Shown piece after piece: positions 1,747-62,498 of a DNA stretch of 64,000 nt. Location of the stretch: NCBI GenBank assembly GCA_963749445.1, contig CAVVMJ010000010.1, positions 43,913-107,912 of the forward strand, read 5' to 3'. Within the stretch, counting starts at the first letter, position 1. Each line of letters opens with the position of its first letter. The position numbers and the translations under genes were made by a program. This stretch comes from an uncultured bacterium (GTDB taxonomy: Bacteria > Patescibacteriota > Doudnabacteria > UBA920). The notes beneath the pieces are model-generated. The model was not told the DNA's origin and did no database searches. It saw only the letters and a program-made list of their open reading frames with translations.

Positions 1747-4700
1747 TTATCTTCCAACCAATTTCAGAAGCGTTTTGCGCTTTTTTACCACCGCGAACGC
1801 GCCGACCATCAATCCGGCAAAAACAAAAGCGTTGGTATCCGCGCCGGTCTTGGGGGCCACAAGCGCTCCCAAAACCTGCGGCGTGTTGATGTTAATCGTT
1901 ATCGCGTTGCCGTAAGTGTTGGTCATAACGTAATGCAGATTGCTGGCCAAAAAGTACTTAATGCGCACGCGGAACGATTTGCTCACGCTGCCGCCGGCCG
2001 ACACAGTAATGGGCGGATAGTTGATGACATTGCCGGAAAGCGTGCCGCCGCCGTTGTCACTGATGTCCGCGTAAGGCAGAACCTGGGACAAATCATCCGT
2101 GACCACAAAGTTGGTGGCCGGCGAATTGCCGTTATTGGTTACCGTCAAAGTGTAAGTAATATAGTCTTCTTTGGAAGCCGGCTGTGTGGTAGCGTCAACA
2201 TTTTTGGTATCGTTCCAGGCTTTTTTGGCGTATATCAAATTAACATTGCCGCCGAGCACGTTGCCGTTGCCGTTAACGAAGACCCACGCGTCATCCTGCA
2301 CATTCGGCACGCTGTCGCCGCGGGCGCTGGCCGTGTTTTCAATGCTGGTGCCGCTGCCGGCCACAACCTGGGCCTGGAAAGTCGCGGTAACGCTCTGACC
2401 CGTGGAAAGCGAGCCCAAATTCAGGCTGTTGCCATACCAGTTGCTGCCGGAATTATAACCGTTGTTGTAATTATTATTGTTGTAATAACCGCCGCTGACC
2501 TGCGTGCTGCCGGAAATCCATTGCAGGCCGCTTACGCCCGCGTCGGTCAAAACCACATTATTGACGCTGGCGTTGCCCGTGTTGGTCACGGTAATTTGGA
2601 ACTGTACGGTATCATTCACGTTGGCGCTTACGGTTTTTTGGAACGAGCCGCCCGCCGTAATATTCCTGACCATTTTTTGGATGCCCAACTGCACGTACTG
2701 GTTATACGGTACCGGGTTATTATAGTAGTAAGGATTACTGTTGGACGACGCGTAGTAATAATAGGTGTTGGTCGTATTAGTTACGTTGTGGGAATCCGTA
2801 GTATTGGTTGTGGTATTGGTTACATTGTGGGAGTCTGTGGTATTCGTAATGTTATGCGAATCGGTGCTGTAATTTATATTATGCGAATCCGAGGTGTTGA
2901 TAATATTATTGCAGGAATTGTTTATGCAGGTATTGATGTTGTTTGTATTGCCGCCGTTGTTGTTATTTGAAGCCTGCAAAGTTATGGCGATAGTAGAAAG
3001 CAGCTGGTTGCAGCTTGCATCATACATCTTAAATACATAACTGCCGCCGGCCTGCAAATCGGAAACCGTTTGCTGGCCGTTGGCACCGCCGCTGGCAAAA
3101 GCCAGTTCCGCGGAAGAGCCGGGGTTGATGCGGGTTATGCGGATTTGGTTGGTGCCCGATGAAGCCCAGCTTATGGTTGAGCTGTAAGCGCTCCCGTTAA
3201 TCAGCAAAGCAGGCGCGGAATAGTTTAAGGTTGCGCCGGTATTGGAGGTACAAACCTGCGGCTGCTGCGAGACATGGACGCTGCAGTTAGCAGATTGGCT
3301 GCCGCTGGTCACGGTTACTGTTTTGGTGCCGATTGAAGTGTAAGTGACTCCGCTGAGCGTATTGCCCAAGGCCGTGCCGTAATTGGCGCCGGGATCGGAC
3401 CAGTTATAACTGCCGTTGCCGCCGGTAGCGGTAAAGTTTACGGCTTGATTGGTTTGGACGCTGGTCGGGTTGGCAAAGCAGGTTAAAGTTTGCGGCTGCT
3501 GGATGACGATGTTAACAACCGGACAACTCACGCCGTTGACTGTGGTTATGCCGCTGGTTACGCCGGCATTAAAGCGGGTAAGAAAAGTCGTGCCCTGGCC
3601 GGCAAACGGCACGGCGCTTTGCGCCGACCAAGTGTAGGTCTGGCTGGAAACAGGGTTGCTAATAGCGTAAGAGACCTGGTCAGACGGCGCATTGCTGCTG
3701 CCGTTTACTGTGGAAGGGGAAGTTAACTGGCAAATCGGCTGATTATTAACAGGAGCAGAACATTTAGCCGAAGCCTGGGCGCTGGCATTGGCCTGGGCCT
3801 GAGCCTGGGCTTGCTGCTGGGCCTGGCTTTGCGCCTTGTTTTGCGCGTCGGCTTGGCTGACGTTGCTGGTGGCTGTGGCGCTGGCCGAAGCCGAGGCCGA
3901 AGCCGAGGCAAACGAGCCGTCAGGGCAGGAAGCGCTGGCCGAAGCCGTGGCGCTGGCCGTGGCAGTTGCCGTAAACGTTCCGGGCTGAACCTGGATATTA
4001 ATAGTCACTATCGGACAGCTCACACCGTTAACGGTAACCGTTCCGGTAGATACACCGGCGTTAAAGCGGGTAAGAAAAGTCGTACCCTGGCCGGCAAACG
4101 GCACGGCGCTTTGCGCCGACCAAGTGTAGGTCTGGCTGGAAACAGGGTTGCTAATAGCGTAAGAGACCTGGTCAGACGGCGCATTGCTGCTGCCGTTTAC
4201 TGTGGAAGGGGAAGTCAACTGGCAAATCGGCTGATTAGCCGGAGCCTGGTTAACCAAAACCGAACAATTGGCGCGCTGGCCGTCAATGCTGCTGACGCTG
4301 GCGGTCTGCGTGCCAACGACACTGTAGTTAACGGTATAACTGGTATAATCCGCCGAAGCGTTCGCCGAAGAAGCGTTGCTGGTAGACCAGCCATAAGCGC
4401 GGCTGGTATCGCCGCCACTGGCGGTAAATACAACCGGTTGACCAAGAGTAATCGAGGCAACGTTGGCGCTGCAGGTTAAAGTCGGAAACTGAGTAGGAGT
4501 GCTACCGCAGCTCAAACTCGGCACAGGCACGTATTTATCAATTTGCGGATAACCATCCGCGGTTAAATAGAAATGTACGGTTTTACCGGGAGTCAACCAC
4601 GGGGCGTCTTGTCCTCCGAAGGGGCTGTTGGCAGCCGCTGCAAATAAACTAGGCTGGCCGGTGGAAGTATTAACTACATAGACTTTAACATTGTTTAAAT

Positions 4701-6642
4701 TGGAAGATGTCCAAGTCACGGTGCCGTCATACAAACATTGATTATAAAGCTGGTTGCCTACCTGGACGTTCAAAGTGGCACTACCGGCCGGAGGAGTGGG
4801 CGTACTGCCGCAGCTCAAAGCGGGCACAGGGACATACTTGTCGATTTGCGGATAATTATCGGCAGTCAAGTAAAAATGGACGCTGGTGCCCGGGGTCAAC
4901 CACGGCGCATCCTGGCTGCCACTTACAGCCGCGGCAAACAAACTCGGCTGGCCGGTTGAAGTATTAACCACGTAAACTTTAACATTGTTTAAATTAGAGG
5001 AAGACCAGGTGACAGTGCCATCATATAAACACTGGTTAGCAACCTGGCTGTTAACCTGAACATTTAACGTAGCGGTGCCGGCCGGAGGAGTGGGCGTACT
5101 GCCGCAGCTCAAAGCGGGCACATTGACGTATTTATCAATTTGCGGATAGTTGTCCGCGGTTAAGTAAAAGTGGACAGACGTGCCCGGAGTAAGCCACGGA
5201 GCATCGGAATTCCCCGAAACGGCGGCGCCGACTAAGCTGGGCTGGCCGGTGGAAGTGTTAACCACGTAGACTTTAACATTGTTTAAATTGGAAGATATCC
5301 AAGTCACGGTGCCGTCATATAAACACTGACCGGAAACCTGTCCGTTAAGATTAACATCCAAAGTAGCTGTGCCGGCCGGAGGGGTAGGCGTACTGCCGCA
5401 GCTCAAAGCAGGCACGCTGACATACTTGTCAATTTGCGGGTAACCATCCGCAGTTAAGTAGAAATGGGTGCTGGTGCCGGGAGTGAGCCACGGCGCATCC
5501 TGGCTGCCACTTACAGCCGCGGCAAACAAACTCGGCTGGCCGGTGGAAGTGTTAACCGCGTAAATTTTAACATTATTTAAATTAGAGGAAGACCATGTGA
5601 CAGTACCATCACCCAAACACTGGCCACTAACCTGGCCGTTGTAGCTTACATCCAAAGTGGCGGTGCCGGCCGGAGGAGTAGGCGTACTGCCGCAGCTCAA
5701 AGCAGGCACGCTGACATACTTGTCAATCTGCGGATAACCATCGGCGGTTAAATAAAAATGGGTGGATGTGCCGGGAGTGAGCCACGGGACATCTGCGTTG
5801 CCGCTTGTAGCGGCGCCAACCAAACCAGGCTGGCCGGTGGAAGTGTTAACCGCGTAAACTTTTACATTATCTAAACCTGAAGAAGTCCATGTTACAGTAC
5901 CATCGCCCAAACACTGGCCACTAACCTGGCCGTTATAGCTTACGTCCAAAGTGGCGGTGCCGGCCGGAGGGGTGGGCTGGGTTTGGCCGGTAACGGTAAC
6001 GGTAAAATAAATCAGTCTGATATAACCAAAACACGCCGGCTGGTCAGGCAAAGAAGCCGAAGAGTTTACAAAATTCAAGCTGCCCTGCCCAATGGGATCC
6101 ATATTCGGATCGCCGGTTCTCGCGCGCCATTGCTGGCCGCTGGCCGAAAGCGTTGTGCCGGAAAGCGTATTAATGTACATCTGGCCGTTTAAGGAATTGG
6201 AAGTGTTGTTAGCCGTAACCGAGGCGGAAATCATGTGACTGTCCGATGTGTTACTGTCAACCGTGGCGCTGACCTGTTCGCCGGTAGCCGCGGGGCCGCC
6301 CACGACCGCGCCGTTGTGCACATATAAAACAAATTCCACCTGGTCGCCGGGCTGGGCGCTAATCATATTATTTTCCGTATCGCCCTGCCAATCGCCGACA
6401 GCTTGCCCGTTGCGCACAATCTGGGCGCGCATAAACGGGGCGTCATTACAGCCGCCGCCGGTATGGGAAATTGAGTAAGGATTTAAAATCGGCGTGCTAA
6501 AAGTCGGGGTGCAGTCGGTTTCCGCGTGCAAAGAATTAATAACCCGCGGAGCCGCGGCCAAAACCGTCAAAGATACCGCAAAAAAACTCACCGCTAAAAC
6601 TGCGCCGACCTTGAAATTTAAAACCTGAGTATATTTTTTCAT
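1747..6642 (-). CDS. giant secreted tandem-repeat cell-surface protein (1631 aa) with sortase-type sorting signal
   Basis: N-terminal signal peptide with hydrophobic core. Five 98-aa (294-nt) tandem repeats. A duplicated roughly 90-aa module, Ser/Ala and Asn/Thr low-complexity tracts, and DUF11-like TVTNNGN segments. C-terminus APKTGAD, then a hydrophobic stretch, then KKRK. Confidence 0.75.
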   Translation of the reverse strand: MKKYTQVLNFKVGAVLAVSFFAVSLTVLAAAPRVINSLHAETDCTPTFSTPILNPYSISHTGGGCNDAPFMRAQIVRNGQAVGDWQGDTENNMISAQPGDQVEFVLYVHNGAVVGGPAATGEQVSATVDSNTSDSHMISASVTANNTSNSLNGQMYINTLSGTTLSASGQQWRARTGDPNMDPIGQGSLNFVNSSASLPDQPACFGYIRLIYFTVTVTGQTQPTPPAGTATLDVSYNGQVSGQCLGDGTVTWTSSGLDNVKVYAVNTSTGQPGLVGAATSGNADVPWLTPGTSTHFYLTADGYPQIDKYVSVPALSCGSTPTPPAGTATLDVSYNGQVSGQCLGDGTVTWSSSNLNNVKIYAVNTSTGQPSLFAAAVSGSQDAPWLTPGTSTHFYLTADGYPQIDKYVSVPALSCGSTPTPPAGTATLDVNLNGQVSGQCLYDGTVTWISSNLNNVKVYVVNTSTGQPSLVGAAVSGNSDAPWLTPGTSVHFYLTADNYPQIDKYVNVPALSCGSTPTPPAGTATLNVQVNSQVANQCLYDGTVTWSSSNLNNVKVYVVNTSTGQPSLFAAAVSGSQDAPWLTPGTSVHFYLTADNYPQIDKYVPVPALSCGSTPTPPAGSATLNVQVGNQLYNQCLYDGTVTWTSSNLNNVKVYVVNTSTGQPSLFAAAANSPFGGQDAPWLTPGKTVHFYLTADGYPQIDKYVPVPSLSCGSTPTQFPTLTCSANVASITLGQPVVFTASGGDTSRAYGWSTSNASSANASADYTSYTVNYSVVGTQTASVSSIDGQRANCSVLVNQAPANQPICQLTSPSTVNGSSNAPSDQVSYAISNPVSSQTYTWSAQSAVPFAGQGTTFLTRFNAGVSTGTVTVNGVSCPIVTINIQVQPGTFTATATASATASASASCPDGSFASASASASASATATSNVSQADAQNKAQSQAQQQAQAQAQANASAQASAKCSAPVNNQPICQLTSPSTVNGSSNAPSDQVSYAISNPVSSQTYTWSAQSAVPFAGQGTTFLTRFNAGVTSGITTVNGVSCPVVNIVIQQPQTLTCFANPTSVQTNQAVNFTATGGNGSYNWSDPGANYGTALGNTLSGVTYTSIGTKTVTVTSGSQSANCSVHVSQQPQVCTSNTGATLNYSAPALLINGSAYSSTISWASSGTNQIRITRINPGSSAELAFASGGANGQQTVSDLQAGGSYVFKMYDASCNQLLSTIAITLQASNNNNGGNTNNINTCINNSCNNIINTSDSHNINYSTDSHNITNTTDSHNVTNTTTNTTDSHNVTNTTNTYYYYASSNSNPYYYNNPVPYNQYVQLGIQKMVRNITAGGSFQKTVSANVNDTVQFQITVTNTGNASVNNVVLTDAGVSGLQWISGSTQVSGGYYNNNNYNNGYNSGSNWYGNSLNLGSLSTGQSVTATFQAQVVAGSGTSIENTASARGDSVPNVQDDAWVFVNGNGNVLGGNVNLIYAKKAWNDTKNVDATTQPASKEDYITYTLTVTNNGNSPATNFVVTDDLSQVLPYADISDNGGGTLSGNVINYPPITVSAGGSVSKSFRVRIKYFLASNLHYVMTNTYGNAITININTPQVLGALVAPKTGADTNAFVFAGLMVGAFAVVKKRKTLLKLVGR
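3470..4235 (-). repeat. duplicated roughly 270-nt module (two copies about 490 nt apart) flanking a Ser/Ala/Gln low-complexity tract
   Basis: aagt(t/c)aactggcaaatcggctgatt at about 3721 and 4212. The protein segment APANQPICQLTSPSTVNGSSNAPSDQVSYAISNPVSSQTYTWSAQSAVPFAGQGTTFLTRFNAGV occurs twice. Confidence 0.8.
4497..6003 (-). repeat. five tandem 294-nt (98-aa) repeats inside the surface protein gene
   Basis: Near-identical DNA blocks starting at about 4500, 4801, 5097, 5391 and 5688 (cgtactgccgcagctcaaagc...). The protein repeats begin TPTPPAGTATL and end PALSCGS. Confidence 0.85.
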
Positions 6643-14605: not shown

Positions 14606-14648
14606 AAAAGCCTGTCTAATATCAATTCTGGCCAGAATTGATATTAGA

Positions 14649-15182
14649 CTAGATAAAATTAAACTTTTTCCTTAAATCTTTATCACTGTCCATTTCTTCA
14701 ACTTTCAAAATTCGGATAAAAAGCAGCAGGCCTGTTTCTCTCAAATACATAATCGCCTCTCGGTTTAAAGGATACGGGCTGACATAAACGCTGTGCTGCA
14801 ATTTCTTAAAACCGTTTTTCTTGAGAAGGCTTCGAAAAAAATTGCGTTTATCTTCACTTTCTTCGGGAATATCAAACATTATTATTCGCCATTTGCCATC
14901 CCATTTTTTTGGCCGTTCCGGTAATCGAGCTTTTGACAACAATGCTTCAAGCTCGCCTTTTGCTGTCAGTCTTATAAAACGTTCATTATCTTTATTTACA
15001 TATTTAATCCAGCCTTTCGCCGCCAAATAACTGACAATTTTATAAAAATTTTTGTTGTCACCCAGCGGCTGCCCCTTATATAACCGCTTGCGCATTTCGT
15101 GGGGAGTAACCAAAAATGTATCCCCCGCAACCAGCAGGGACATCAATATTTTGCTAGTTAAAGTAAAATCTTTTTTTGCCAT
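14649..15182 (-). CDS. PaaX-like transcriptional regulator (winged HTH plus Cas2-like domain)
   Basis: N-terminal winged-HTH (FIRLTAKGELEAL). C-terminal WRIIMFDIPE...LQHSVYVS matches the Cas2/PaaX-middle-domain fold signature. Confidence 0.5.
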   Translation of the reverse strand: MAKKDFTLTSKILMSLLVAGDTFLVTPHEMRKRLYKGQPLGDNKNFYKIVSYLAAKGWIKYVNKDNERFIRLTAKGELEALLSKARLPERPKKWDGKWRIIMFDIPEESEDKRNFFRSLLKKNGFKKLQHSVYVSPYPLNREAIMYLRETGLLLFIRILKVEEMDSDKDLRKKFNFI

Positions 15183-15213
15183 TGTCTAATATAGTTTCCG
15201 GCCATAAATGATG

Positions 15214-16227
15214 TTAGATAAGATTTTTGCCGTATTGCTGCTTGTAATATTTCTGGTAATCCCCGCTCTTTACTCTTTTCCACCAACCCCGGTTGCTCTG
15301 ATACCAGTCCAAAGTTTTTTGCAAAGATTCGTCCAATCCGTATTTAGGCTGCCAGCCGAGCTCGCGGGTAATTTTGGAATGATCCAACGCGTACTTTTGA
15401 TCATGGCCCGGACGGTCGGCAACGAATTCTATCATTCCATCACTCTGCTTCATCATGACCAATAATTTCCTGATGATTTCCAAATTGCTGAATTCCGGAT
15501 TGTTAGGCCCGATAAAATAAGTCTCTCCCGCTTTGCCTTTTTCTAATATTGTTTCTATGCCGCTGCAGTGGTCTTCCACATAAAGCCATTCACGGATTTG
15601 GTTGCCGGGTTTATAAACCGGAACTTTTTTGCCTTCCAATAAATTGGTAATGGCCAGCGGGATTAGCTTTTCCGGAAACATATACGGGCCGATGTTATTG
15701 GCGCAATTGGAGATGGTTATAGGCAAACCATAGGTGTAATAATAAGCGCGGACAAGATGATCACTGGCCGCTTTGCTTGCCGAATACGGGCTGCGCGGAT
15801 TGTACGGACTCTCCTCTGTCCACTTTGTTTTGGAATCAAGGGGCAGCGATCCAAATACTTCATCAGTAGATACATGATGGAAGCGCTTTACCTGATATTT
15901 GCGGGCGGCTTTAAGCAACTCATGCGTACCAATAACATTTGTCCGGATAAAATCATCAGGGCCGGATATTGAACGGTCAACGTGCGTTTCGGCTGCAAAA
16001 TGGACAACAACCTCAACGCCCTGCATCGCCTTATTGACAGCCGCGGGGTCGCAAATGTCGCCTTTGATAAAAGTTATCTTATCCTTAACCGCAGCCAAAT
16101 TTTCCAAATTGCCGGCATAGGTTAATTTATCCAGCACGACAATTTTGTCGTCCGGATGATTCTTGACCCAATAATGGACAAAGTTGGAGCCAATAAACCC
16201 CGCCCCGCCGGTAATAAGAATCTTCAT
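15214..16227 (-). CDS. rfbB: dTDP-glucose 4,6-dehydratase
   Basis: MKILITGGAGFIGSNF...; YxxxK in YSASKAASD; 337 aa. Confidence 0.9.
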   Translation of the reverse strand: MKILITGGAGFIGSNFVHYWVKNHPDDKIVVLDKLTYAGNLENLAAVKDKITFIKGDICDPAAVNKAMQGVEVVVHFAAETHVDRSISGPDDFIRTNVIGTHELLKAARKYQVKRFHHVSTDEVFGSLPLDSKTKWTEESPYNPRSPYSASKAASDHLVRAYYYTYGLPITISNCANNIGPYMFPEKLIPLAITNLLEGKKVPVYKPGNQIREWLYVEDHCSGIETILEKGKAGETYFIGPNNPEFSNLEIIRKLLVMMKQSDGMIEFVADRPGHDQKYALDHSKITRELGWQPKYGLDESLQKTLDWYQSNRGWWKRVKSGDYQKYYKQQYGKNLI

Positions 16228-20110: not shown

Positions 20111-20951
20111 TTTGGTTTTATTGATCAGTTATATATAAGCAATGTAGCGTGCCGATTCATCGGCGTCCGAAAACCGCCCATAAATGGGCACGCTACACTT
20201 ATTCATTATATAAAACATTTGTCAAAAAGACAAAAAAAGCTCTCTGCCAGATCAGAGAGCAACGGTACCCGGAAGCCCGCGTGCGGCCCCGGGATTTTTC
20301 TACGATACGCAACCGTTCAAAAACAAACGGCTGGTTCCCGCGGCAGATGCTGGCAACCGCGAAAAATTCATAATTGCGGCCCGGAGCTTTCGCCCCGGAC
20401 TGTGCCCCATGTGGGGCTCCTTCTCCTTGGTATTGTATACCCGCTTGCCAGTTCAGGCGGGGTGATGCAAAAGGGCAGAAGCCCCAACTACGCCCAAAAT
20501 ATCACCGATATTACTGGTTGGGCCTGCCTGATCAAACGCTCCCGGAGCTAAATGGAGTTAAAAAATATCAGGGCAGAAGCGCCTGCAGTCCTCGGCCGTC
20601 AACCGAGTCCTTTGGCGATTTTTTGCCCCTATTTCGTCCAAACCATCAGGGGCCAATGGATTGCACGTTGGGCTATCGGCTCAGCAGGTTGACGGACATC
20701 GTCGCACTCATAGACGAAACTCCCTTCTTCATGTGTTCCAATTGTTTTTCCGCAGGCCTTTTTCCTGCGGCGATTGGTTTAACCAGATATTACTCTCTCT
20801 CTCTGTTTTTGTCAACATTTTTGCCATTTTTACAATTTTGTTGTAAAATACTTTTATCATTGATTTTTAACAGCCCTACCGACTGTTTATCGGACGAGGG
20901 CTATCCTCAGAGGCCGATAAATCGGCAAACTACACTGGGGTGAAAGCAAAT

Positions 20952-22815
20952 ATGCAACGAACACTATCTTTGGAAACGCCCGAAAAAATCGGGCAAGACG
21001 TCTCGGTTGAGGGCTGGGTAAATTCCCGGCGCGACCACGGGGGCGTTATTTTTATTGATTTGCGCGACCACACTGGTTTGGTCCAGCTCGCGATTCATCC
21101 TGATGAAAAAGAGGCTTTCGCGGCCGCTGATAAATGCCGCGACGAGTTTGTAATAAAAGCCGAGGGCAAAGTTATTGAACGGTCGCCCGAAACCAAAAAC
21201 GAAAACCTGCCCACAGGCGGCGTGGAAATTTTAACTTCATCTATCGTCATCCTTAATACTTCCAAACCCCTGCCGTTTCAGGTGGCGCACGGCCATGGTG
21301 AAGAACAGGAAATTAACGAGGATTTGCGATTAAAATATCGGTTCCTTGATCTGCGCCGCGAAAAAATGCAAGCAATGCTCGTCAAACGGCACAAAATGAT
21401 TAAGTTTATCCGCGACTGGATGGACGAACATCAATTTATAGAAATCACCACGCCGATTCTGACTTCCAGCAGCCCCGAAGGCGCGCGCGACTTTTTAGTG
21501 CCGTCGCGCCTGCACCCCGGAAAATTTTACGCTCTGCCGCAATCGCCTCAGCAATACAAACAGCTGCTGATGACCGGCGGCGTGCCGCGCTATTTCCAAA
21601 TCGCGCCATGTATGCGAGACGAAGACCCGCGTGCGGACAGAAGCCCGGGCGAACACTACCAGCTGGACTTGGAAATCGGTTTTGCCCAGGAACCGGAAGA
21701 TGTGTTTTCGGTGATGGAGCCGTTTTTTGTGGAGTTGGCCGAAAAATTCGCGGACAAAAAAATCTGGAAAAAACCTTTCCCGCGCATTTCCTACGAAGAC
21801 GCCATGAATTTATACGGCTCGGATAAACCGGATTTGCGTTTTGGAATGGCAATGGTGGATTTAACGGAAGATTTACGCAATACAAAATTTAGCGTTTTCG
21901 GCAACGCCATAAAAAACGGCGGGGTGGTCAAGGCCATTTGTTGCGACGACGGCGCAAAATTAACCCGCTCGCAAATTGACGAACTTACGGAAATGGTCAA
22001 AAAAGAAGGCGCCGGCGGGCTGGCGTATATTGTTGTTGATAGCAAATCCGATAGTGGCGTAGAGGCACGCCGCGGCGTGCCTGATCAAGACGGCATGCCT
22101 CGGCATGCCGCTACAGGGACAGAAAACCTCCGCTCCCCCATCCTTAAATTTTTATCATCTGACGAAATTTCCGCCATCCTCACCAAAACCAAGGCCGAGC
22201 CCGGTGACATTATTTTCTTTGGCGCGGACCAGTTGCCGATTGTGAACAAAGTCCTCGGGAAGCTCCGCAGTAAACTTGGCGACGTCTTCGGGTTAAAAGA
22301 TCGAAAACCTAATAGCCTGGGCCTGGATTTACAACTTCCCGATGTATGAATACAATGAGCAGGAAAAGCGCCTGGACTTCGGCCACAATCCGTTTTCCAT
22401 GCCCAAAGGCGGGCTGGAAGCATTAAACACGCAAGATCCGCTCAAAATCATTGCCCAGCAATATGACATTGTGGCCAACGGCCTGGAAATTTGCTCCGGC
22501 GCCATCCGCAATTACCATCCCGAAACTATGTATAAGGCTTTTGAAATTGTTGGTTACGACAAAAAAACTGTGGACGAAAAATTCGGCGGCATGATCCGCG
22601 CCTTTGAATTTGGCGCGCCGCCGCACGGCGGCATGGCCCCGGGCATTGATAGGATAATGATGCTTTTGGAAAATGAACCCAACATCCGCGAAATTATCGC
22701 CTTCCCCAAAAACGGCTCAGCCGAAGACGTCATGATGGGCGCCCCCGGCACCGTGGAAGAAAAACAGTTAAAAGAATTGCATATAAAACTGGACCTTCCA
22801 AAACCTAAAAAATAG
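20952..22815 (+). CDS. aspS: aspartyl-tRNA synthetase, with an apparent frameshift in an A4 run near 22295-22298
   Basis: N-terminal anticodon-binding OB fold, class II motifs and motif 3 [19 protein letters not shown]. ORFs 20940..22349 and 22342..22815 are in different frames. The upstream frame reads ...GLKD and the downstream frame ...[16 protein letters not shown], matching the E. coli sequence around WAPLWVIDFPMFE. Confidence 0.85.
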
Positions 22816-22875
22816 CAGTCCATCCCGGAATTTTTTGCGCTGATGGCTATCACAGGCCGCAAAAAATATCCGGGA
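22816..22875 (+). repeat. hairpin repeat family F2, copy 1
   Basis: CATCCCGGAATTTTTTGCG - 20-nt loop - CGCAAAAAATATCCGGGATCC. Near-identical copies at 43998-44057 and, inverted, at 55140-55213. Confidence 0.8.
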
Positions 22876-22971
22876 TCCAGAATCGAGCAAAAATCTGGAT
22901 TCCCGCTTCCGTGGGAATGGCAAAGAGTAATTCACCGATTTATCGGTCATAAAAAATTAAATGCAAAAAAA

Positions 22972-25815: not shown

Positions 25816-26012
25816 ACGGCCGGAAACGCTTATCTAGGCAACTGGTTATAAGAAGCCTGCGGACTGGACGGCACTTCCTGTTTGAGCTGAACTTTTTGGC
25901 AAGCGGCCGCCAAAAGCGACAGTAAAACCAAAACCAAAATCAATTTCCTTTTACCCATATTATAAATCCCTTGTCTAACATCATTTCCGGCCGGAAATGA
26001 TGTTAGAGTAAA

Positions 26013-26774
26013 TTAAATCAATAGCGCCGCGCCCAAAGCTCCAGCGTTCTTTAATTGCGAAACCAAAATTTCAGTCTCGGCATTTTTGTCGAAAAGATAC
26101 TGACGCATCTCTAACTTCGCCGCGGGCAAATACTTTTTGCTTTGGTCGCTGCCGAATCCGCCCCCGATAATGACGGCATCGGCCGCGAAAATATTTATAA
26201 AAGACGCCAGTGCTTTGCCGACCACTCTGCCTACCTGCTTATAATCTTTCTTGTCCCGAAACCGCTTGAAAGCCGCTTCAAAAAACTCCTCGCCCAAAAC
26301 TATGTGCCCAAGCTCGGCGCCAAAATTGTTTTCGCCCCGATACAGCCGCCTGTTAATCACAATCCCGCCGCCGATGCCGGTACCCAAAGTCAAAGCCAAA
26401 AAATTTTTGAATTTTCTCCCCTGCCCCAACATCAGTTCCGCCCGGGCAAAACAGTTGGCGTCATTGTCAACCCTGACCCTTTTTATGCCGTTTAATTTAA
26501 GCAGCTTGGCTAAATTTAAATCACGGATAAATTTTATATTCGGGGAATGCCTGACCATGCCATTTTTCTGATCTACCAATCCGGCCATGCCCGCGCCGAG
26601 GCCGGAAATTTTTCGCTTTGCTGACAAAAAATCCGCGAGCTTGATGATGTTCCGCTCAAACTCAAATAAATTTTTCGGGGTCACAACTGTCAGCTCGTCA
26701 ATGATTTTTTTACCGTCATAAACAATGCCGGTGATTTTAGTGCCGCCGATGTCAATTCCTATAATATTTTTCAT
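26013..26774 (-). CDS. ROK/BadF-type sugar kinase (ASKHA ATPase)
   Basis: MKNIIGIDIGGTKITGIV phosphate-1 motif; DNDANC and GTGIGGGIV motifs; no ROK zinc motif. Confidence 0.6.
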   Translation of the reverse strand: MKNIIGIDIGGTKITGIVYDGKKIIDELTVVTPKNLFEFERNIIKLADFLSAKRKISGLGAGMAGLVDQKNGMVRHSPNIKFIRDLNLAKLLKLNGIKRVRVDNDANCFARAELMLGQGRKFKNFLALTLGTGIGGGIVINRRLYRGENNFGAELGHIVLGEEFFEAAFKRFRDKKDYKQVGRVVGKALASFINIFAADAVIIGGGFGSDQSKKYLPAAKLEMRQYLFDKNAETEILVSQLKNAGALGAALLI

Positions 26775-33578: not shown

Positions 33579-33815
33579 TCATTTCGTATTCAGCAAAAAC
33601 TTAATAAACTCCACCACCCCCTGCCAAATATTCTGCAGCATTGGCACCGATGTCGGCAGTAAAATCAGCAGGGCAATAATAAAAATAAAATCCTTTTTTA
33701 CCACCTTAAAAATGGAGTAGACCAAAAATATGGCCAAGGCGATGGAAATGACCGGCCGCGTGTTGACCGGAAAGTTGGCAAGAAACTGCAGGTAAAGGGA
33801 CTGAATTTGGTCCAT
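33579..33815 (-). CDS. small membrane protein (hypothetical) immediately upstream of lexA
   Basis: Start chosen at MDQIQSLYLQ. The longer track ORF translates the upstream repeat array. Two TM segments. Confidence 0.4.
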   Translation of the reverse strand: MDQIQSLYLQFLANFPVNTRPVISIALAIFLVYSIFKVVKKDFIFIIALLILLPTSVPMLQNIWQGVVEFIKFLLNTK

Positions 33816-33820
33816 AGAAT

Positions 33821-33920
33821 AATTGACAAGATTTAAAAGATTTAAATGATTGACAAGATTTTCAACTGGCAATCTTGCTCAATCATGTCAATCTTGTCAA
33901 TCTTGTCAATCTTGTCAATA
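33821..33920. promoter_or_regulatory. array of about six ATTGACAAGAT motifs (two forward, four reverse at 9-bp spacing) upstream of the small membrane gene
   Basis: AATTGACAAGATTT at 33821 and 33850. ATCTTGTCAAT at 33888, 33897 and 33906, with a partial fourth reverse copy ending near 33918. Each contains a TTGACA hexamer. Confidence 0.5.
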
Positions 33921-33951
33921 ATATTATAGCACAAACAAGCCGGATGTAAAG

Positions 33952-37056: not shown

Positions 37057-38421
37057 TCAGAATGACGCCCTTGATAAATAATCTCCGATAATTTGCCTGG
37101 TTTCGTCCAGGTTTTTTGTTTGCATTAGCTTGGCGCGTAGCTCGTGCGCGCCGGCAAAACCGGAACAATAAGCTTTAAAATGCTTGCGCATAATCGCGAA
37201 TGATTTATTTTTGCCAAGTTCCCGGTCAAACAGTTCCGCGTGTTCCAGCATGACGCGGAGGCGTTCTTTTATGTCCGTCTGGTAATTATCATCGCGAAAT
37301 ACCCAAGGGTGCCCAAACGCTCCCCTGCCGATCATTACGCCGTCGCAACCCGTCTCCGCGACGCGCGCCAGCCCTTCCTCGCGCGACTTAATGTCGCCAT
37401 TCCCGATAATCAAAGTCTTAGCCCTTAGCCCTAAAACCTTAGCCCTGATATTCACCGCCTCGGCAATCTTGTCCCAATGCGCCGGAACTTTGGACATTTC
37501 CTGTTTGGTACGGCCGTGCAAAATCAGCGCCGCGATGTCCATCGCGAGCAAATTTTCCACCCATTTTTCCATCTCCGATGTTTTGCTGTAGCCGATGCGG
37601 GTTTTGACTGATATCGGCACCAAAACCACCTCCCCCCTCGGCTTCGCTCGGGGTACTCCTCCTTGAAAAGGAGGAGAGCTCCGCACTTTATCCGATAACG
37701 GGGACAATTGCGGAGCCTCCCCTCCTGTTAAGGAGGGGTGTCCCGCGGAGCGGGACGGGGTGGTTGGAGATTGCACGGATTGTCCCGACAGCCACCCTTC
37801 TTTTGTCGCGCTGATGATTTCCCAGGCGAGTTTCGGTTCGCGGATAAGCGCCGCGCAAGTCCCGCCCGCAATTTCTTTTTGCTGCGGACAGCCCATATTA
37901 ATGTCAATGCCGTCAAATTTTAAATCGCGGATGATTCGCGCGGCCTCTTTAAATTTTTCCGGGTCGCGCCCCCACAACTGCGCCACAATCGGTCTCTGCG
38001 CTTCGCTGTATTTTAAATCGATGGATAAATTTTTCCTGCCTTCCGGATGCGTCAACCCGTCCACGTTTATAAATTCCGTGAACGTAACAAAATTATTACC
38101 ACCTCCCCCGCCTTCGGCGGGTACTCCTCCTATGAGAGGAGGAGAGCTCCGCAAAATATTCGAGGATAACCGCGGAGCGCTCCCCTCCTTTTTTGAGGCC
38201 TTGATGAAGGCAAAGGAGGGGTGGCTCGCGCAGCGAGACGGGGTGGTACTTCCACTTTTAACTTTTAATTTTCCACTTTTAACTTGCCCGCCATAGCGGG
38301 CCACCATCTCCCGAAACGCAAAGTCAGTGACTTGCTCCATCGGAGCCAAGCAAAATATCGGTTTCTTTAAATTATTCCAAAAATTATTCATTGCGCAAGC
38401 AAACGACCTCTCTGTCGCCAA
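37057..38421 (-). CDS. tRNA-dihydrouridine synthase (Dus family; specific paralog not determined) carrying three in-frame repeat-element insertions
   Basis: CLAPMEQVTDFAFREMV, DINMGCPQQKEIAGGTCAAL and IGNGDI motifs. At 454 aa versus about 330 expected. Inserts correspond to family F1 copies at 38098-38240 and 37625-37766 and a short TTAGCCCT repeat at 37416-37451. Confidence 0.8.
   Translation of the reverse strand: MATERSFACAMNNFWNNLKKPIFCLAPMEQVTDFAFREMVARYGGQVKSGKLKVKSGSTTPSRCASHPSFAFIKASKKEGSAPRLSSNILRSSPPLIGGVPAEGGGGGNNFVTFTEFINVDGLTHPEGRKNLSIDLKYSEAQRPIVAQLWGRDPEKFKEAARIIRDLKFDGIDINMGCPQQKEIAGGTCAALIREPKLAWEIISATKEGWLSGQSVQSPTTPSRSAGHPSLTGGEAPQLSPLSDKVRSSPPFQGGVPRAKPRGEVVLVPISVKTRIGYSKTSEMEKWVENLLAMDIAALILHGRTKQEMSKVPAHWDKIAEAVNIRAKVLGLRAKTLIIGNGDIKSREEGLARVAETGCDGVMIGRGAFGHPWVFRDDNYQTDIKERLRVMLEHAELFDRELGKNKSFAIMRKHFKAYCSGFAGAHELRAKLMQTKNLDETRQIIGDYLSRASF
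37625..37766. repeat. palindromic repeat family F1, copy A (module order 1 then 2), inside dus
   Basis: CCACCTCCCCCC..GGGGTACTCCTCCttgaaaaGGAGGAGAGCTCCGC ... GCGGAGCCTCCCCTCCtgttaaGGAGGGGTG..GGGACGGGGTGG. Confidence 0.85.
38098..38285. repeat. palindromic repeat family F1, copy B, plus adjacent tandem TTCCACTTTTAACTT x2, inside dus
   Basis: Same module structure. Module 2 is nearly identical to the copies at 62499 and 63405. Confidence 0.85.
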
Positions 38422-39757: not shown

Positions 39758-39900
39758 AATTTATTAGTAGTTAGCAGATAGTATTTAGCAGTTAGGGCTA
39801 GATCGACCTCGTAGCCGATAAATATCCTTTTAATAAAAAGACTCGGGCTTACCCGAGTGAATAAGTGTAGTGTGCACATTTATGGGCAACTAATGATGGC
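39758..39900 (-). promoter_or_regulatory. rplJ 5' leader (candidate L10-leader autoregulatory structure)
   Basis: A 140-nt untranslated region with hairpin potential (GGGCTTACCCGAG..) upstream of rplJ. Call is by position only. Confidence 0.3.
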
Positions 39901-43929: not shown

Positions 43930-43997
43930 CTTTTTGTTTGCCCAAAAATCCCTGAAATGGGATTTTTTTCTTATTAACAAATCCTACAGGCCTTCCC

Positions 43998-44057
43998 ATC
44001 CCAGAATTTTTTTGTGCTGATGGTATTCATCGGCCACAAAAAAATATCCGGGATCCA
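43998..44057 (+). repeat. hairpin repeat family F2, copy 2
   Basis: CATCCCAGAATTTTTTTGTG ... CACAAAAAAATATCCGGGATCC. Confidence 0.8.
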
Positions 44058-44198
44058 AAAAGAAGCGCAACTGGATCCCGGCTCTCGGCGGCACTCGGCC
44101 GGGATGGCACAAGAAATACAAAACTTACCATCAATCATTGCCAACTTTTTTATTTTGCCCTATAATTTACGAAGAAATATCATTAATTAAAAGCAAAC

Positions 44199-48171: not shown

Positions 48172-48732
48172 TCAAAGCCCATTTTTTGCTTCTAAAACGT
48201 TTAACTGTAATGATTTTTTTATCTCTTCCAGCGCTATTTGTTTGTTTTCTAAACTTTTAACCTCTGTCACTTTGTTTTTCTGTCGGCCCACTTCGCGGTA
48301 AAAGGCCGTGCATTTTTCCAAAAAGCCCGGCGGCAAATTATCAGCGTCAAGATATTTACCGGCAAGTTCGTCGTCCAGAGGCACAACAATAATTTTATCA
48401 TCCACTTCGCCGCGGTCAATGGTTTTTAACATACCGACCGCTTTGCACTTCACGAACTCGCCCATCTTAATCGGCGCGGATGACAAAACTATGGCGTCCA
48501 AAGGGTCACCGTCGCCGCCCAAAGTGTGCGGAATGAATCCGTAATTAAAAGGAAAAACCAAATCCTTAAATACAAAATCCAATTTTAAACTGTCTGAGGC
48601 TTCGTCGTACTCGTACTTTAAATTACTCCCTTGCGGAATTTCCACAATGACGTTAAAAGCCTCCAAACTGCCAAAAGGAATTTGTTCCAGATTAATTTTG
48701 TCATTTTTATTATTTTTACTCATTTTTGTCAT
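48172..48732 (-). CDS. ppa: soluble inorganic pyrophosphatase (family I)
   Basis: Core region FNVIVEIPQGSNLKYEYD...LDFVFKDLVFPFNYGFIPHTLGGDGDPLDAIVL. Confidence 0.85.
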   Translation of the reverse strand: MTKMSKNNKNDKINLEQIPFGSLEAFNVIVEIPQGSNLKYEYDEASDSLKLDFVFKDLVFPFNYGFIPHTLGGDGDPLDAIVLSSAPIKMGEFVKCKAVGMLKTIDRGEVDDKIIVVPLDDELAGKYLDADNLPPGFLEKCTAFYREVGRQKNKVTEVKSLENKQIALEEIKKSLQLNVLEAKNGL

Positions 48733-50138
48733 TACCCAATTATTCCGCCGCCAACGCACACTTTACCCTTATATAATACCAAACTCTGCCCCGAAGCGAC
48801 AGCTTTTTGGGGATCTTTAAAGGTTACGCGATAAAGGCCATTTTTAATTTTGTCGATAGTTAGCGGCACCAGTTGGCCCTGGTGGCGGTAGCGGCCAACT
48901 AGGGCTAAGGGTCTAGGGCTAAGAGCTAAGTCGCTTTTGCTTAGCCCTATAACCTTAGCGCTTAGCCCTGTTTGCCCAATCCAGTTCACGCTATAAATTT
49001 GTACTTCTTTCGTCATCAGATTTTCGTCATCCGGATTATTTGTAACGTACAACGCATTGCTCTTTAAATCTTTTCTTACCACATAATACGGCCCGCCGGC
49101 GCCAACATGAATTCCCTGCCGCTGGCCGATGGTATAGTTAAATAATCCCTGATGTTGGCCGATTATGTTTCCTGAAATTGCAAGTGCAGCCGACTTGTCC
49201 GCCGAAGCTTCAGCGAAGGTGGAAGCAATCCCGTCTTTTATGGGATTGCCACGTCGCCCCTCCGGTGCAGTCGGGGCTCCTCGCAATTTCAAATCAGAAG
49301 AAACAAGAACAATCGGACCCGGTTTTGGCTTTAACCTCTGTTCCAAAAAATCTTTTAATCTTATCTTGCCGACAAAGCACAGTCCCATACTCTCTTTTTT
49401 CTCGGCGTTGGGCAGATCGATTTTCCGCGCCAGCGCGCGCACCGCCGATTTTTTCATCCCGCCGATGGGAAACAACAAATGCGGCAGCTGGTGGGTTTTG
49501 ATGTTATAGATAAAGTAGGTCTGGTCTTTAAATTCGTCGATACTGCGCATAAGACCATACCTAACTCCAACCTCCTCCCCCGCCTGACGGCGGGTACTCC
49601 TCCTTAAAAAGGAGGAGAGCTCCGCGGAGCCGCCAAGAACATCTGCAGAGCCTCCCCTCCTGCCAAGGAGGGGCGTCTGCGAAGCAGACGGGGTGGTATG
49701 AATCTGCGCGTAATGGCCGGTGGCCAAATAATCAAATCCGTTTTGCATTGCCCAGTTATACAAAAGTTTGAACTTGATTTCCTTATTGCACATCACGTCC
49801 GGGTTGGGGGTGAGGCCTTTTTTGTATTGGTCAAAAAAATAACGCATCACGTTTTTTTGGTACTGTTTTTCAAAATCCAAAGTATGCAGCGGAATTCGCA
49901 AAAACGCGGCCACGCGCAGCGCGTCCTGGCGATCTATTAGCCACGGACATTCGTTTTTTAAAAGCCCGGCCGTGGAAGACCAATTCTTCATAAACGCGGC
50001 CTCAACTTCGTAGCCCTGCTTAATCAGCAAATACGCCGAAACCGCGGAATCAATCCCGCCTGACAGGGCGATTAAAACTTTTCGTTTCTTAACTCCCCCT
50101 CTTTTGAAAAGAGAGGGCTGGGGGAAGTTCTTTTTCAT
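48732..50138 (-). CDS. mnmA: tRNA-specific 2-thiouridylase MnmA carrying in-frame repeat-element insertions
   Basis: PP-loop LIALSGGIDSAV; KDQTYF; C-terminal domains. The F1 copy at 49566-49700 encodes a 46-aa insert. A TTAGCCCT repeat at 48901-48972 encodes ALSPRPLAL. A mini-hairpin sits at 50091-50130 near the N-terminus. Confidence 0.85.
   Translation of the reverse strand: MKKNFPQPSLFKRGGVKKRKVLIALSGGIDSAVSAYLLIKQGYEVEAAFMKNWSSTAGLLKNECPWLIDRQDALRVAAFLRIPLHTLDFEKQYQKNVMRYFFDQYKKGLTPNPDVMCNKEIKFKLLYNWAMQNGFDYLATGHYAQIHTTPSASQTPLLGRRGGSADVLGGSAELSSFLRRSTRRQAGEEVGVRYGLMRSIDEFKDQTYFIYNIKTHQLPHLLFPIGGMKKSAVRALARKIDLPNAEKKESMGLCFVGKIRLKDFLEQRLKPKPGPIVLVSSDLKLRGAPTAPEGRRGNPIKDGIASTFAEASADKSAALAISGNIIGQHQGLFNYTIGQRQGIHVGAGGPYYVVRKDLKSNALYVTNNPDDENLMTKEVQIYSVNWIGQTGLSAKVIGLSKSDLALSPRPLALVGRYRHQGQLVPLTIDKIKNGLYRVTFKDPQKAVASGQSLVLYKGKVCVGGGIIG
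49566..49700. repeat. palindromic repeat family F1, copy C, inside mnmA
   Basis: CCTCCTCCCCCGCC..GGGTACTCCTCCttaaaaaGGAGGAGAGCTCCGCGGAGC ... CTCCCCTCCtgccaaGGAGGGG..GACGGGGTGG. Confidence 0.85.
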
Positions 50139-50268: not shown

Positions 50269-51009
50269 CTATCTGGTAAACTTTAACAATTCTTGATGAA
50301 CTTTGCCGTTGGTAATAAGCGCGCCGTTGACTTGCCTATCATACCGTTGTTCCCTGCCATAGCGGTCTGTGACCTTACCGCCGGCCTCTTCCACGATAAT
50401 TTCTAACGCCGCCACGTCGTGGGCATTTTTGCCGGGATAACAAGTCGCGTTCAGCTCCCCGCAGGCAACCATGACCCCTTCATAACAAATGCACCACAGG
50501 CAAATTGCCTGAACTTTTGGATAATAATATTTCGCAATTTTGGTCATTCCCCTGTTGCTCCAGCCGATGACCCCGCTTTTCATATTCAAATTATTAACGC
50601 GGATTTTTTTGCCGTTTAAAGTCGCGCCTTTGCCAAGCTCGGCAAAAAACATCCGGTCCATAATCGGATCGTACACAACGCCCAAAATCGGTTTGCCGTC
50701 TTTAACCAGGGCCAAAGAAAAAACAAAAGTCGGGATAGCATGGGAAAACGGCACCGTGCCGTCCACCGGATCGCAGACCCACAAATATTCACCATGGTTT
50801 GATCTGTAACTTTCTTCCTCCCCCAACACATCGTGGCCGGGAAAATTCTTTTTAACCGCTTCAATGACCATTTTGTTGACCGCAACATCCGTTTTGGTTA
50901 CCGGCGAACCGTCCGCCTTAAACTTCTTTTCCATCCCGGCTTTAAAATCCTTCCGGATAATCTCTCCGGCCTGCTTGGCGATTTTGATGGCAAATTTTTT
51001 GTAAGTCAT
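50269..51009 (-). CDS. inositol monophosphatase family protein (SuhB/CysQ-like)
   Basis: VLGEEE and WVCDPVDGT metal-binding motifs. Confidence 0.8.
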   Translation of the reverse strand: MTYKKFAIKIAKQAGEIIRKDFKAGMEKKFKADGSPVTKTDVAVNKMVIEAVKKNFPGHDVLGEEESYRSNHGEYLWVCDPVDGTVPFSHAIPTFVFSLALVKDGKPILGVVYDPIMDRMFFAELGKGATLNGKKIRVNNLNMKSGVIGWSNRGMTKIAKYYYPKVQAICLWCICYEGVMVACGELNATCYPGKNAHDVAALEIIVEEAGGKVTDRYGREQRYDRQVNGALITNGKVHQELLKFTR

Positions 51010-51059: not shown

Positions 51060-51788
51060 TCATTTGTTCACGTACTGCTGCGCCTGCTGGAGCAAGCCGT
51101 TTAAGTCAGAAGCCTGCAGCTCGTGGCCGTTAAAAAAATAACTCGGCGTGCCCTGCAAATTTAAACCCAGCGCCTGGTTGTTGTCGTTCTCTATGGCGGG
51201 CAGGTATTTTTTCCCGGTTACGTCATTTTTAAATTGATTGATGTCGGAAACGCCGACGGTTTGGGCGTACTGGGCAAAGGTGTCCAGCGGATCGCCTAGA
51301 CCTTCCCAATCGGATTGTTTTTGGAAAAGGATGTCGTGCATTTCCCAATATTTTCCCTGCGCTCCGGCGGCTTCCGCGGCCATGGCCGATTCCACCGAAT
51401 TGGCGTGGATTTGCACCAGCGGAAAATAACGGAACACGAACACGGTGTCGGGAAATTTGTCCGGCACCTGCTTAAGCTCGACGCTGGCCGCGGCGCAGGA
51501 TGGGCACTGAAAATCAGCGTACTCGATTAGGACATTTTTGGCCTTGGCGTTGCCCAAATAATGATCCGCGGCCGGGTCAAAAGCCGGCACAGCCGAAAGC
51601 GGTTTGGCGCCGGAAGTGTCCAAGCTGGCGTTGTAAGAAGACGTGTTCCCCGTGCCGGTTTGCGTATTCGGCGAAATCTTGAGCAGGTAATATCCAAAAC
51701 CCAAAATCACCACCAAAATGATTATAATCGTAATAATTTTTTTTGCGCCCGATGACGATCCGCCGTCGGCGGGATTAAAATTTGCCAT
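51060..51788 (-). CDS. membrane-anchored DsbA-like thiol:disulfide oxidoreductase
   Basis: N-terminal TM; thioredoxin-fold CPSC active site in LIEYADFQCPSCAA. Confidence 0.75.
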   Translation of the reverse strand: MANFNPADGGSSSGAKKIITIIIILVVILGFGYYLLKISPNTQTGTGNTSSYNASLDTSGAKPLSAVPAFDPAADHYLGNAKAKNVLIEYADFQCPSCAAASVELKQVPDKFPDTVFVFRYFPLVQIHANSVESAMAAEAAGAQGKYWEMHDILFQKQSDWEGLGDPLDTFAQYAQTVGVSDINQFKNDVTGKKYLPAIENDNNQALGLNLQGTPSYFFNGHELQASDLNGLLQQAQQYVNK

Positions 51789-54111: not shown

Positions 54112-54393
54112 TTACTGGCAAAAATGGTTTTGGCAGGTTTGGCCGGCTGGGCATTCGTTACTGGCCACACATTCGCGGGCTACGGTCTGTTCAATGAACA
54201 TCCTGCCGCCGGGAGCCCCGCACTGCCTGGGATAACTTTGCATTACCGGATAGCCGGCTGCCGCGCACTCCTGGAAATTGCTGATTTTCGGCAATGGGGG
54301 ATTTTTTGACTTAAAAAAAATAATCACGGCTGCGGCCGCCAACAAAACCAAAAAAATTCCCGAATAAATTCTGACGTCACTGCGGATTTCCAT
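54112..54393 (-). CDS. small secreted Cys-rich protein (hypothetical)
   Basis: Signal/TM start, then six Cys in about 55 aa (QECAAAGYP...CVASNECPAGQTCQNHFCQ). Confidence 0.35.
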   Translation of the reverse strand: MEIRSDVRIYSGIFLVLLAAAAVIIFFKSKNPPLPKISNFQECAAAGYPVMQSYPRQCGAPGGRMFIEQTVARECVASNECPAGQTCQNHFCQ

Positions 54394-55078: not shown

Positions 55079-55139
55079 ACTTTTATTATAGCTTGTCCAC
55101 CCCGGAACCCCGGACTCCGATCCGGGGTATCCGGGGTCC

Positions 55140-55213
55140 AGGTAAAAGCCTATATCTGGATCCCGGATATTTTTTGCGGCTTATAATAATCGTCAACGCA
55201 AAAAATTCCGGGA
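55140..55213 (-). repeat. hairpin repeat family F2, copy 3 (inverted orientation)
   Basis: Reverse complement reads CCATCCCGGAATTTTTTGCG ttgacgattattataagc CGCAAAAAATATCCGGGATCC. Confidence 0.8.
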
Positions 55214-55221
55214 TGGAACCT

Positions 55222-57691: not shown

Positions 57692-57772
57692 AATGAAAAA
57701 TCCTTACTTAAAATATAGCAAAGATAAGGATTTTTTACAATGATTGATGTCACGACGTTGTTGCTTAGGAAA

Positions 57773-57930
57773 ACTGCGGAGCATTCCCCTCCTATTCCCA
57801 GAATATCATCAGAATATAGGAGGGGTGTCGCCCGCAGGGTGACAGGGTGGTAAATACAGGTTGCCGATGTCTACCACCTCCCCCTGCTAGTGCAGGGTAC
57901 TCCTCCTGTTCCAGGAGGAGAGGCTCCGCA
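57773..57930. repeat. palindromic repeat family F1, copy D (module order 2 then 1), intergenic
   Basis: GCGGAGCATTCCCCTCC..GGAGGGGTG..GGGTGGTA - spacer - TACCACCTCCCCC..GGGTACTCCTCCtgttccaGGAGGAGAGGCTCCGC. Confidence 0.85.
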
Positions 57931-62491: not shown

Positions 62492-62498
62492 CAAACCC

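Follow-up and report, generated by a model that had tools for sequence, protein, structure and literature searches.

Between the genes of the 64,000-nt stretch of Doudnabacteria DNA analysed here (the window) lie three copies of a long hairpin, and the question raised by this locus is what class of repeat they belong to and which protein, if any, acts on them. A preliminary description of the window had called them REP/MITE-like elements or shared bidirectional terminators; the first of these terms is right in kind, as the copies are multicopy, intergenic, oriented palindromic repeats, arranged here as inverted doublets. Two features absent from that description, the oriented flanks of the hairpin and its link to a nuclease gene, were seen in the alignment of the family and at related loci. 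On comparison of sequences, these F2 copies are probably oriented hairpins of the NTS/SRM class, the DNA partners of Ssn nucleases, present in the window as doublets without a gene.

Reading, alignment and folding placed the full spans of the three F2 elements at 22818-22922, 43994-44109 and 55094-55219 (sites 1, 2 and 3). Each element is a doublet of 105-126 nt, composed of a long hairpin (hairpin A), a spacer of 12-14 nt and a second, shorter hairpin in inverted orientation, within the frame xTCCAT-[hairpin]-ATCCAG ... CTGGAT-[hairpin]-ATGGCA. Hairpin A consists of a foot of 8 bp (ATCCCGGA/TCCGGGAT), a 1-nt bulge (an A) in the 3' arm, a distal stem of 10 bp made of an A/T tract and a variable loop of ~18 nt, in agreement with the 18-bp stem and variable loop reported before. 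The second hairpin opens with CTGGAT and closes with ...GGGATGGCA; on the opposite strand it reads xGCCAT-stem-loop-stem-ATCCAG, which is the frame of hairpin A. This second hairpin, which adds 45-65 nt to each copy, had been overlooked, and the extent given earlier was thus correct for the long hairpin but not for the element. The 21-nt 3' arm CGCAAAAAATATCCGGGATCC was found, with at most three mismatches, at 22858-22878 (+), 44036-44056 (+) and 55158-55178 (-), compared with a chance expectation of 0.00 in the window (100 shuffles), bearing out the claim of a repeat at three sites with one copy inverted; the 5' arm CATCCCGGAATTTTTTGCG is exact at sites 1 and 3. Pfam likewise confirmed the flanking genes as named: the C-terminus of aspS ends at 22815, the H+-PPase gene (hppA) starts from 44199, and the GDPD and NUDIX genes occupy 54377-55078 and 55222-55635, respectively.

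At site 1, the left long hairpin (22818-22880, + strand; flanks GTCC|AT...AT|CCAG, tail CCAG) is formed by a 5' arm at 22822-22839, a loop at 22840-22857 and a 3' arm with the bulged A at 22858-22876, and the covariance model R1, built from 62 distinct copies of the family, scored it at 67.0 bits on the + strand versus 30.7 on the - strand. The spacer AATCGAGCAAAAAT (22881-22894, +) separates it from the right short inverted hairpin (22895-22922, -), which reads TGCCATTCCCACGGAAGCGGGAATCCAG on the - strand and has the frame of the Neisseria-type NTS/SRM. The left long hairpin of site 2 (43994-44058, +; R1, 56.5 bits) has one A.C mismatch and the tail CCAA; its 5' arm, loop and 3' arm lie at 43998-44016, 44017-44034 and 44035-44054, all on the + strand. 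It is followed by a spacer at 44059-44070 (+) and a right inverted hairpin at 44071-44109 (-), which reads TGCCATCCCGGCCGAG...GAGAGCCGGGATCCAG on the - strand and is itself a full-length R1 match (44070-44110, - strand, 25.3 bits). Site 3 is in the opposite orientation: the left long hairpin (55156-55219, -; R1, 70.1 bits on the - strand) has its 5' arm at 55197-55214 and its 3' arm at 55160-55178 (both -), with the tail corresponding to + strand 55156-55159 and the 5' flank GTTCC to + strand 55215-55219. The spacer occupies 55142-55155 (-), and the right inverted hairpin (55094-55141, +) reads TGTCCACCCCGGAACCCCGGA...TCCGGGGTATCCGGGGTCCAG on the + strand. The latter shares the 8-bp foot and the 1-nt bulge with the long hairpin but has a G+C-rich distal stem, and is a full-length R1 match (55094-55142, + strand, 31.8 bits).

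The tails in the window are ATCCAG or ATCCAA, with the C after the palindrome present, and the 5' tags are TCCAT, CCCAT or TTCCAT, not GTCAT. Pairwise identity of the three copies was 89% or less, the value for sites 1 and 3 being 89%. A relaxed scan of the window for the frame revealed only these three doublets above a background of ~4 matches, and R1 found only the three copies and their inverted partners, with weak matches at 50591-50662 and 61031-61096 that are noise. RNA folding of the elements was far stronger than that of shuffled sequences (z = -5.0 to -6.1). The minimum-energy fold was a cloverleaf at sites 2 and 3 and three adjacent hairpins at site 1; because the two halves of the element are inverted, the cloverleaf reflects alternative pairing of the arms and is no separate feature. 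The ORF start at 22843, earlier ascribed to translation of the repeat, is plausibly such an artefact: its first 43 codons comprise hairpin loop, arm, spacer and second hairpin, and an in-frame ATG at 22972 stands directly before a hydrophobic N-terminus like that of the neighbour gene at the syntenic locus L076. Upstream of site 1, the coding sequence of aspS is itself broken into two frames that overlap (20940-22349 and 22342-22815), and alignment of region 22295-22350 with the intact L076 orthologue located a 1-nt frameshift at ~22301-22307, beside an A4 run; misassembly, a pseudogene or a genuine frameshift could each account for the break.

A single scan of 185,579 species-representative genomes with the query AAAAAATATCCGGGATCC yielded 88 loci (L001-L088). 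About 55 of the 88 contain a complete hairpin, and the remainder are chance matches inside genes of unrelated bacteria. Among the scanned loci, R1 recognised 73 forward-oriented copies (45-73 bits) in 23 metagenome-assembled genomes labelled as Doudnabacteria, Parcubacteria, Patescibacteria group, "Saccharibacteria", Moraniibacteriota and Peribacteria; nearly all hosts were Patescibacteria, and the others were two Rickettsiales and one "Gammaproteobacteria". Identical copies were present at five or more loci of one genome, in several genomes, and all 73 copies are intergenic once ORF-start artefacts are discounted. At least half of them have an inverted partner hairpin that ends in ATGAC(A) and lies 14-100 nt off, and the others are solo. 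With at least 73 copies in 23 genomes, the possibility that only three copies exist as remnants of one duplicated gene terminus fails. A scan of viral contigs for the 20-mer gave 0 matches. In the window, Rfam at its gathering threshold reported only three tRNAs and no family that fits F2, and the best sub-threshold matches at permissive thresholds were chance miRNA hairpins. Full-text literature search for the arm sequences found no paper, search on Patescibacteria and miniature inverted-repeat elements nothing relevant, and a first search on GIY-YIG and palindrome organelle papers only. Readings as integron attC sites, CRISPR or coding repeats were rejected, as the copies do not stand in arrays, have no core sites and keep no reading frame.

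In the alignment of the 62 sequences, little or no variation was seen in the (T/C)GTCAT and ATCCAG flanks, in the foot of 8 bp, at the bulged purine or in the A/T tract. Over 18 pairs, 94.8% of 1088 pair cells were paired, and the observed pairing score was reached by 0 of 500 shuffles. The loop and the three distal pairs are variable, with covariation of the pairs, both sides having changed in 34 of 52 and 24 of 53 cells; the proximal stem is conserved in sequence as well as in structure. The hairpin also has a direction. R1 gave 45-73 bits for forward copies versus 17-34 bits for the same loci reversed, T.G wobbles outnumbered G.T by 30 to 1, and the forward strand folds slightly better than the reverse, although the difference in fold is weak evidence because the copies are not independent. 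Across the 73 copies, orientation relative to neighbouring genes is random (26 co-oriented versus 22 anti-oriented), and the agreement in direction between all three window copies and the genes beside them is therefore no rule. Directly 5' of hairpin A, several loci (L076 2355-2400, L107 2590-2640, L072, L068, L066 and L052) contain three to four spaced (C)GCTGA(A/T) motifs, a module on the side where an Ssn would cut and absent from the window copies.

At L041/L047 (Parcubacteria) and L083 (Doudnabacteria), an inverted pair of hairpin A encloses an ORF of ~99 aa at a distance of 1-34 nt, and L107, a short metagenome contig, is arranged likewise on the upstream side of its gene and has the TCCAT tag of the window; three independent loci (L041/L047, L083 and L107) thus join hairpin A to a GIY-YIG gene. 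The enclosed ORF encodes a GIY-YIG domain and no other (PF01541, E = 2e-14 and 6e-17, residues 7-81 of 99-100 aa), and reading of its sequence against the published SsnA revealed that the spacing Y10-Y21-E68 matches the mutated positions Y6-Y17-E64 (PMC11893778). The bracketed protein has more than 7,000 homologues at E <= 1e-10; its PDB relatives are only UPF0213 proteins (E ~1e-6), and NCBIfam holds no Ssn-specific model for it. Bracketed nucleases of different lineages are only ~51% identical, and foot, bulge and tail are nonetheless kept. The TCCAT-type tag also occurs around the ssn-like genes of L083 and L107, and in genome CAWINB01.

Because L001-L088 had been picked for containing the hairpin, the three bracketed genes there are subject to ascertainment bias, and a reverse test was therefore run from relatives of the protein, in 80 metagenomic loci encoding proteins 49-76% identical to it. 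An in-frame forward hairpin was present within 170 nt upstream in 40 of 78 loci, an inverted one downstream in 40 of 70 and both in 28 of 68, compared with 21 of 1666 random windows of the same loci (1.3%). Many of these hairpins are exactly GTCATTCCCGCGCAGGCGGGAATCCAG, the Neisseria NTS, and homologues flanked by exact NTS sequences are 55-76% identical to the bracketed protein. The F2-type hairpin itself was found in only one of the 80 loci (L107), the reverse test bearing on the frame in general. The homologous genes of L089 and L097 are bracketed by short, unrelated stems that share the frame (for example, upstream GTCAT-CCCAAA...TTTGGG-ATCCAG; downstream CTGGAT-TCCAGC...GCTGGA-ATGACA).

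The Ssn/SRM system was described in 2025 by Chenal et al. in Nat Commun (PMC11893778). SsnA, a single-domain GIY-YIG protein of 94 aa, binds and cuts the NTS (CGTCATTCCCGCGMAVGCGGGAATCYRG, which contains the classical dRS3) solely as single-stranded DNA and in one orientation; the cut falls a few nt upstream of the hairpin, binding depends critically on the C that directly follows the palindrome, and cutting in Neisseria on the three bases preceding it (PMC11893778). Thousands of Ssn homologues exist (CDD cd10448), most of them flanked by SRM ("Ssn-related motifs"); in N. meningitidis the ssnA/NTS pair lowers transformation by NTS-containing DNA, and NTS-ssnA-NTS was likened by its authors to an insertion sequence (PMC11893778). 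The same class had been catalogued earlier as "CGTC-tagged REPs" (Di Nocera et al. 2013, PMC3733652), with stems closed by A-T pairs, a CCA tail, a frequent arrangement as inverted dimers, no known associated transposase, and dRS3/NIME of Neisseria and RPE-4/RPE-6 of Rickettsia among its members.

F2 resembles NTS/SRM in being an oriented hairpin whose 5' tag is of the GTCAT type, whose stem is closed by A-T pairs and whose tail is ATC(Y)RG, and in being multicopy and intergenic (NTS/SRM copies number from hundreds to tens). Like NTS/SRM, the family has hairpins on both sides of a GIY-YIG gene of ~95-100 aa with the tags outward, and the exact Neisseria-type NTS flanks genes for close relatives of the F2-bracketed protein. 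The differences concern the stem, which in F2 is 18-19 bp long (foot, bulged purine and A/T extension) with a loop of ~18 nt, compared with 7-9 bp and 0-5 nt in NTS/SRM, and the hosts, Patescibacteria being a group unmentioned in the main text of PMC11893778. The window copies differ further in having TCCAT in place of GTCAT and in forming tight gene-less doublets with no nuclease gene nearby: neither tblastn nor Pfam on the 66 ORFs of the 64-kb window found an ssn or GIY-YIG gene. The published SRM pattern HGTCWYN(0-2)YYVSBRHN(0-5)WNVSBRGN(0-2)RNCYNB, a search heuristic from 29 genomes with a loop limit of 5 nt, matched neither the window (0 hits) nor any F2 hairpin, because their stem, bulge and ~18-nt loop exceed its limits; it does match the short hairpin beside the L089 gene. 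With the CGTC-tagged REPs, F2 shares a tag ending in GTC, A-T stem ends, a CCA tail, inverted dimers and no tyrosine transposase, whereas those repeats, whose hosts are Proteobacteria, Bacteroidetes and members of other phyla, have stems of 8-9 bp and loops of 4-5 nt; F2 is far longer and was found in the present scan almost exclusively in Patescibacteria, plus two Rickettsiales genomes. On these sequence features we classify F2 as a long-stem, Patescibacteria-associated variant of the SRM/NTS repeats.

The layout of a window doublet equals that of the hairpin-ssn-hairpin unit of related genomes minus the ~300-bp gene, with the tails inward. Within genome JAGLYP01, each end of two gene-less doublets, L061 and L063, agrees with the ssn unit L041 over 61-67 of 75 nt, as non-autonomous derivatives should. 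Spread in the form of such derivatives of an ssn-carrying unit is the most probable history of the doublets. The likely mechanism is carried over from the enzymes of Neisseria, N. elongata, N. wadsworthii and Wolbachia covered in PMC11893778. The hairpins would fold on their own strand when the DNA becomes single-stranded during replication, repair or DNA uptake; a cognate Ssn would bind both the folded hairpin and the C that adjoins it on the 3' side, and would cut a few nt 5' of the GTCAT/TCCAT tag, and the geometry of the doublet would place a cut just outside each end of the element. By analogy with those enzymes, an Ssn of this organism may cut at F2. The excess of T.G wobbles and the slightly better fold of the forward strand hint, only indirectly, at such action on single-stranded DNA in one orientation. 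The nuclease may also serve as the copier of the elements, and a physiological effect, such as limiting the recombination of incoming single-stranded DNA, may follow. We put forward only tentatively, as possible and still on the doubtful side, that hairpin-ssn-hairpin is a mobile element with the 99-aa GIY-YIG nuclease as its "transposase" and that the F2 doublets are MITE-like derivatives copied in trans.

Related loci offered a comparison of occupied and empty positions. The window is syntenic with L076 over 18.7-24.7 kb and with L006 over 48.2-55.6 kb (both Doudnabacteria loci), with 69-84% identity over the aligned segments, which places it in a Doudnabacteria-like genome. L006 contains a doublet between the orthologues of genes 50269-51009 and 51060-51788, where the window has none, and contains neither the GDPD gene nor site 3; after aspS, a solo hairpin stands in L076 at a distance of 30-40 nt and a doublet in the window at 3 nt. 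The flanks of L006 and L076 are ~70-75% identical to the window and hence too diverged to define exact ends or target duplications. An exact-protein look-up of hppA found no record. The NUDIX protein and a 187-aa protein were matched only in the Logan run ERR10755942, which contains the same genome in the same arrangement and therefore gives no information on presence or absence.

The most serious alternative to active Ssn substrates, which concerns activity and not identity, is that the window copies are inert relics, of SRM class by descent, whose matching Ssn was lost or never present, and which would only fill intergenic space and break short-read assemblies. The missing ssn gene within 64 kb fits this reading, as do the stem mismatch at site 2 and the divergence of the copies, which at 89% identity or less may be old and inert. 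Furthermore, L187, a 1064-nt contig of ERR10755942, ends 67 nt past the gene upstream of site 2, inside F2; such an end right at the site is typical of a repeat, which evidently breaks assemblies. However, foot, bulge and ATCCAG tail are intact in the three copies, both hairpins are retained in every doublet, L076 also has a hairpin just after aspS even though the two aspS genes are only ~75% identical, and three copies per 64 kb is a high density for a genome of ~1 Mb. We consider the relic reading unlikely, yet the one to be taken most seriously.

Considerably less probable is a role at the RNA level, as a bidirectional intrinsic terminator, as the preliminary description had it, or as a stabiliser of mRNA 3' ends. 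Stabilisation of mRNA 3' ends has been proposed for some REPs. Like Rho-independent terminators, F2 forms a stable, strongly folding hairpin just after the stop codon at two of the three sites (sites 1 and 3 start 3-5 nt past it), and the three window copies run with their genes. A weak-consensus scan also marked small hairpin-plus-T-run sites within the elements, but only on the strand opposite the genes, and at none of the three sites does the long hairpin have a sense T-run (the 3' U-tract of such terminators). A separate canonical terminator (43944-43967) precedes site 2, which lies 90 nt before hppA. The random orientation of the family, the lack of a matching Rfam family and the invariance of the foot sequence across distant lineages, which exceeds what a terminator needs, all argue against such a role, and SsnA does not bind RNA (PMC11893778).

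Two transposon-based explanations fare worse. The elements resemble bacterial MITEs (Correia/NEMIS, RUP, Nezha) of 100-170 nt in having inverted ends, intergenic multicopy distribution and a longer, gene-carrying relative, and an ordinary MITE derived from an insertion sequence with a DDE transposase and the same terminal inverted repeats would account for a length of 105-165 nt, ends of the form TGTCATCC.../...GGATGACA and identical copies. Nevertheless, neither the three window copies nor the near-identical Parcubacteria copies show a target-site duplication, ~0.5 Mb of F2-containing loci yielded no parent with a transposase, the gene-carrying version encoding GIY-YIG only, each end is a hairpin and about half of the copies are solo; Pfam on the 66 window ORFs found no transposase of any kind. 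A DDE origin thus appears highly improbable. Mobilisation as a REP/REPIN by a RAYT (HUH Y1 transposase), or derivation of the PATE type from IS200/IS605, is the least credible of all, since inverted doublets of bulged, imperfect palindromes, presumed recognition of a folded single strand and presumed mobilisation in trans by a single-copy, itself repeat-flanked nuclease gene are shared with REPIN/BIME-RAYT systems, but the tag is (C/T)GTC instead of GTAG, no Y1_Tnp match or RAYT exists among the 66 window ORFs, the sole gene bracketed by hairpins encodes GIY-YIG and not an HUH Y1 enzyme, and CGTC-tagged repeats are reported without RAYT association (PMC3733652).

The window contains further repeats apart from F2. 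A second family of composite palindromes (37626-37764, 38094-38251, 49564-49626, 57767-57929, 62490-62649 and 63396-63558), probably the "F1" of the preliminary description, is composed of GCGGAGC, a CCCCTCC hairpin, a GCTCGC hairpin and GGGGTGGTA, plus the inverse, without the GTCAT/ATCCAG frame. Two of its copies lie inside the dus ORF (37057-38421, 454 aa), where the Dus domain is split into two stretches, and one lies inside an mnmA-like ORF (48732-50138), where the HUP domain is split; these copies resemble palindromes inserted in frame, in the manner of Rickettsia RPE. Members of a third palindrome family (TGTCTAAYAT..TTCCGGCC..ATGTTAGA) are found at 14609-14655, 15179-15225 and 25968-26014, the first two of which bracket ORF 14649-15182 with a PaaX_M / Cas2-like domain, a further case of a small gene between hairpins. 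Another shared hairpin (..GTAGCGTGCC..GGCACGCTAC..) is present at 20130-20210 and 39858-39887 of the window and at ~7345-7375 of L007, where it directly follows an F2 hairpin. Dense direct and inverted TTGACAAGATT / AATCTTGTCAA repeats fill the intergenic region 33806-33935 beside lexA and MarR-like genes; this cluster, which may be an operator or an iteron-like array, recurs with ~80% conservation at L059, L052 and L022, loci that are not syntenic with the window. Finally, ORF 1747-6642 (1631 aa) contains five tandem repeats of 294 nt (98 aa) at 4491-5977, with 72-85% identity, and shorter GCxGAGGCC repeats at 3779-3964.

For annotation, F2 repeats can yield false ORF starts, such as that at 22843, and break short-read assemblies, as at L187. 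The published SRM pattern is blind to the long-stem branch, and counts of SRM-bearing genomes are therefore underestimated. The conserved foot, bulge and tail point to the features that the nuclease reads, and F2 with its nuclease would be a new enzyme/site pair for single-stranded-DNA tools. Our reading of F2 as NTS/SRM-class hairpins would extend the Ssn/SRM system to candidate-phyla-radiation bacteria, in whose tiny genomes tolerance of tens of repeats would not be expected. With gene-carrying and gene-less units side by side, it becomes testable whether Ssn drives a mobile element or is a nuclease that has been domesticated. Should the mobile-element proposal be true, it would constitute a new mechanistic class of bacterial mobile DNA, for which Patescibacteria would offer the clearest autonomous/non-autonomous pairs, with shared ends of 60-75 nt, identical copies and genomes of ~1 Mb.
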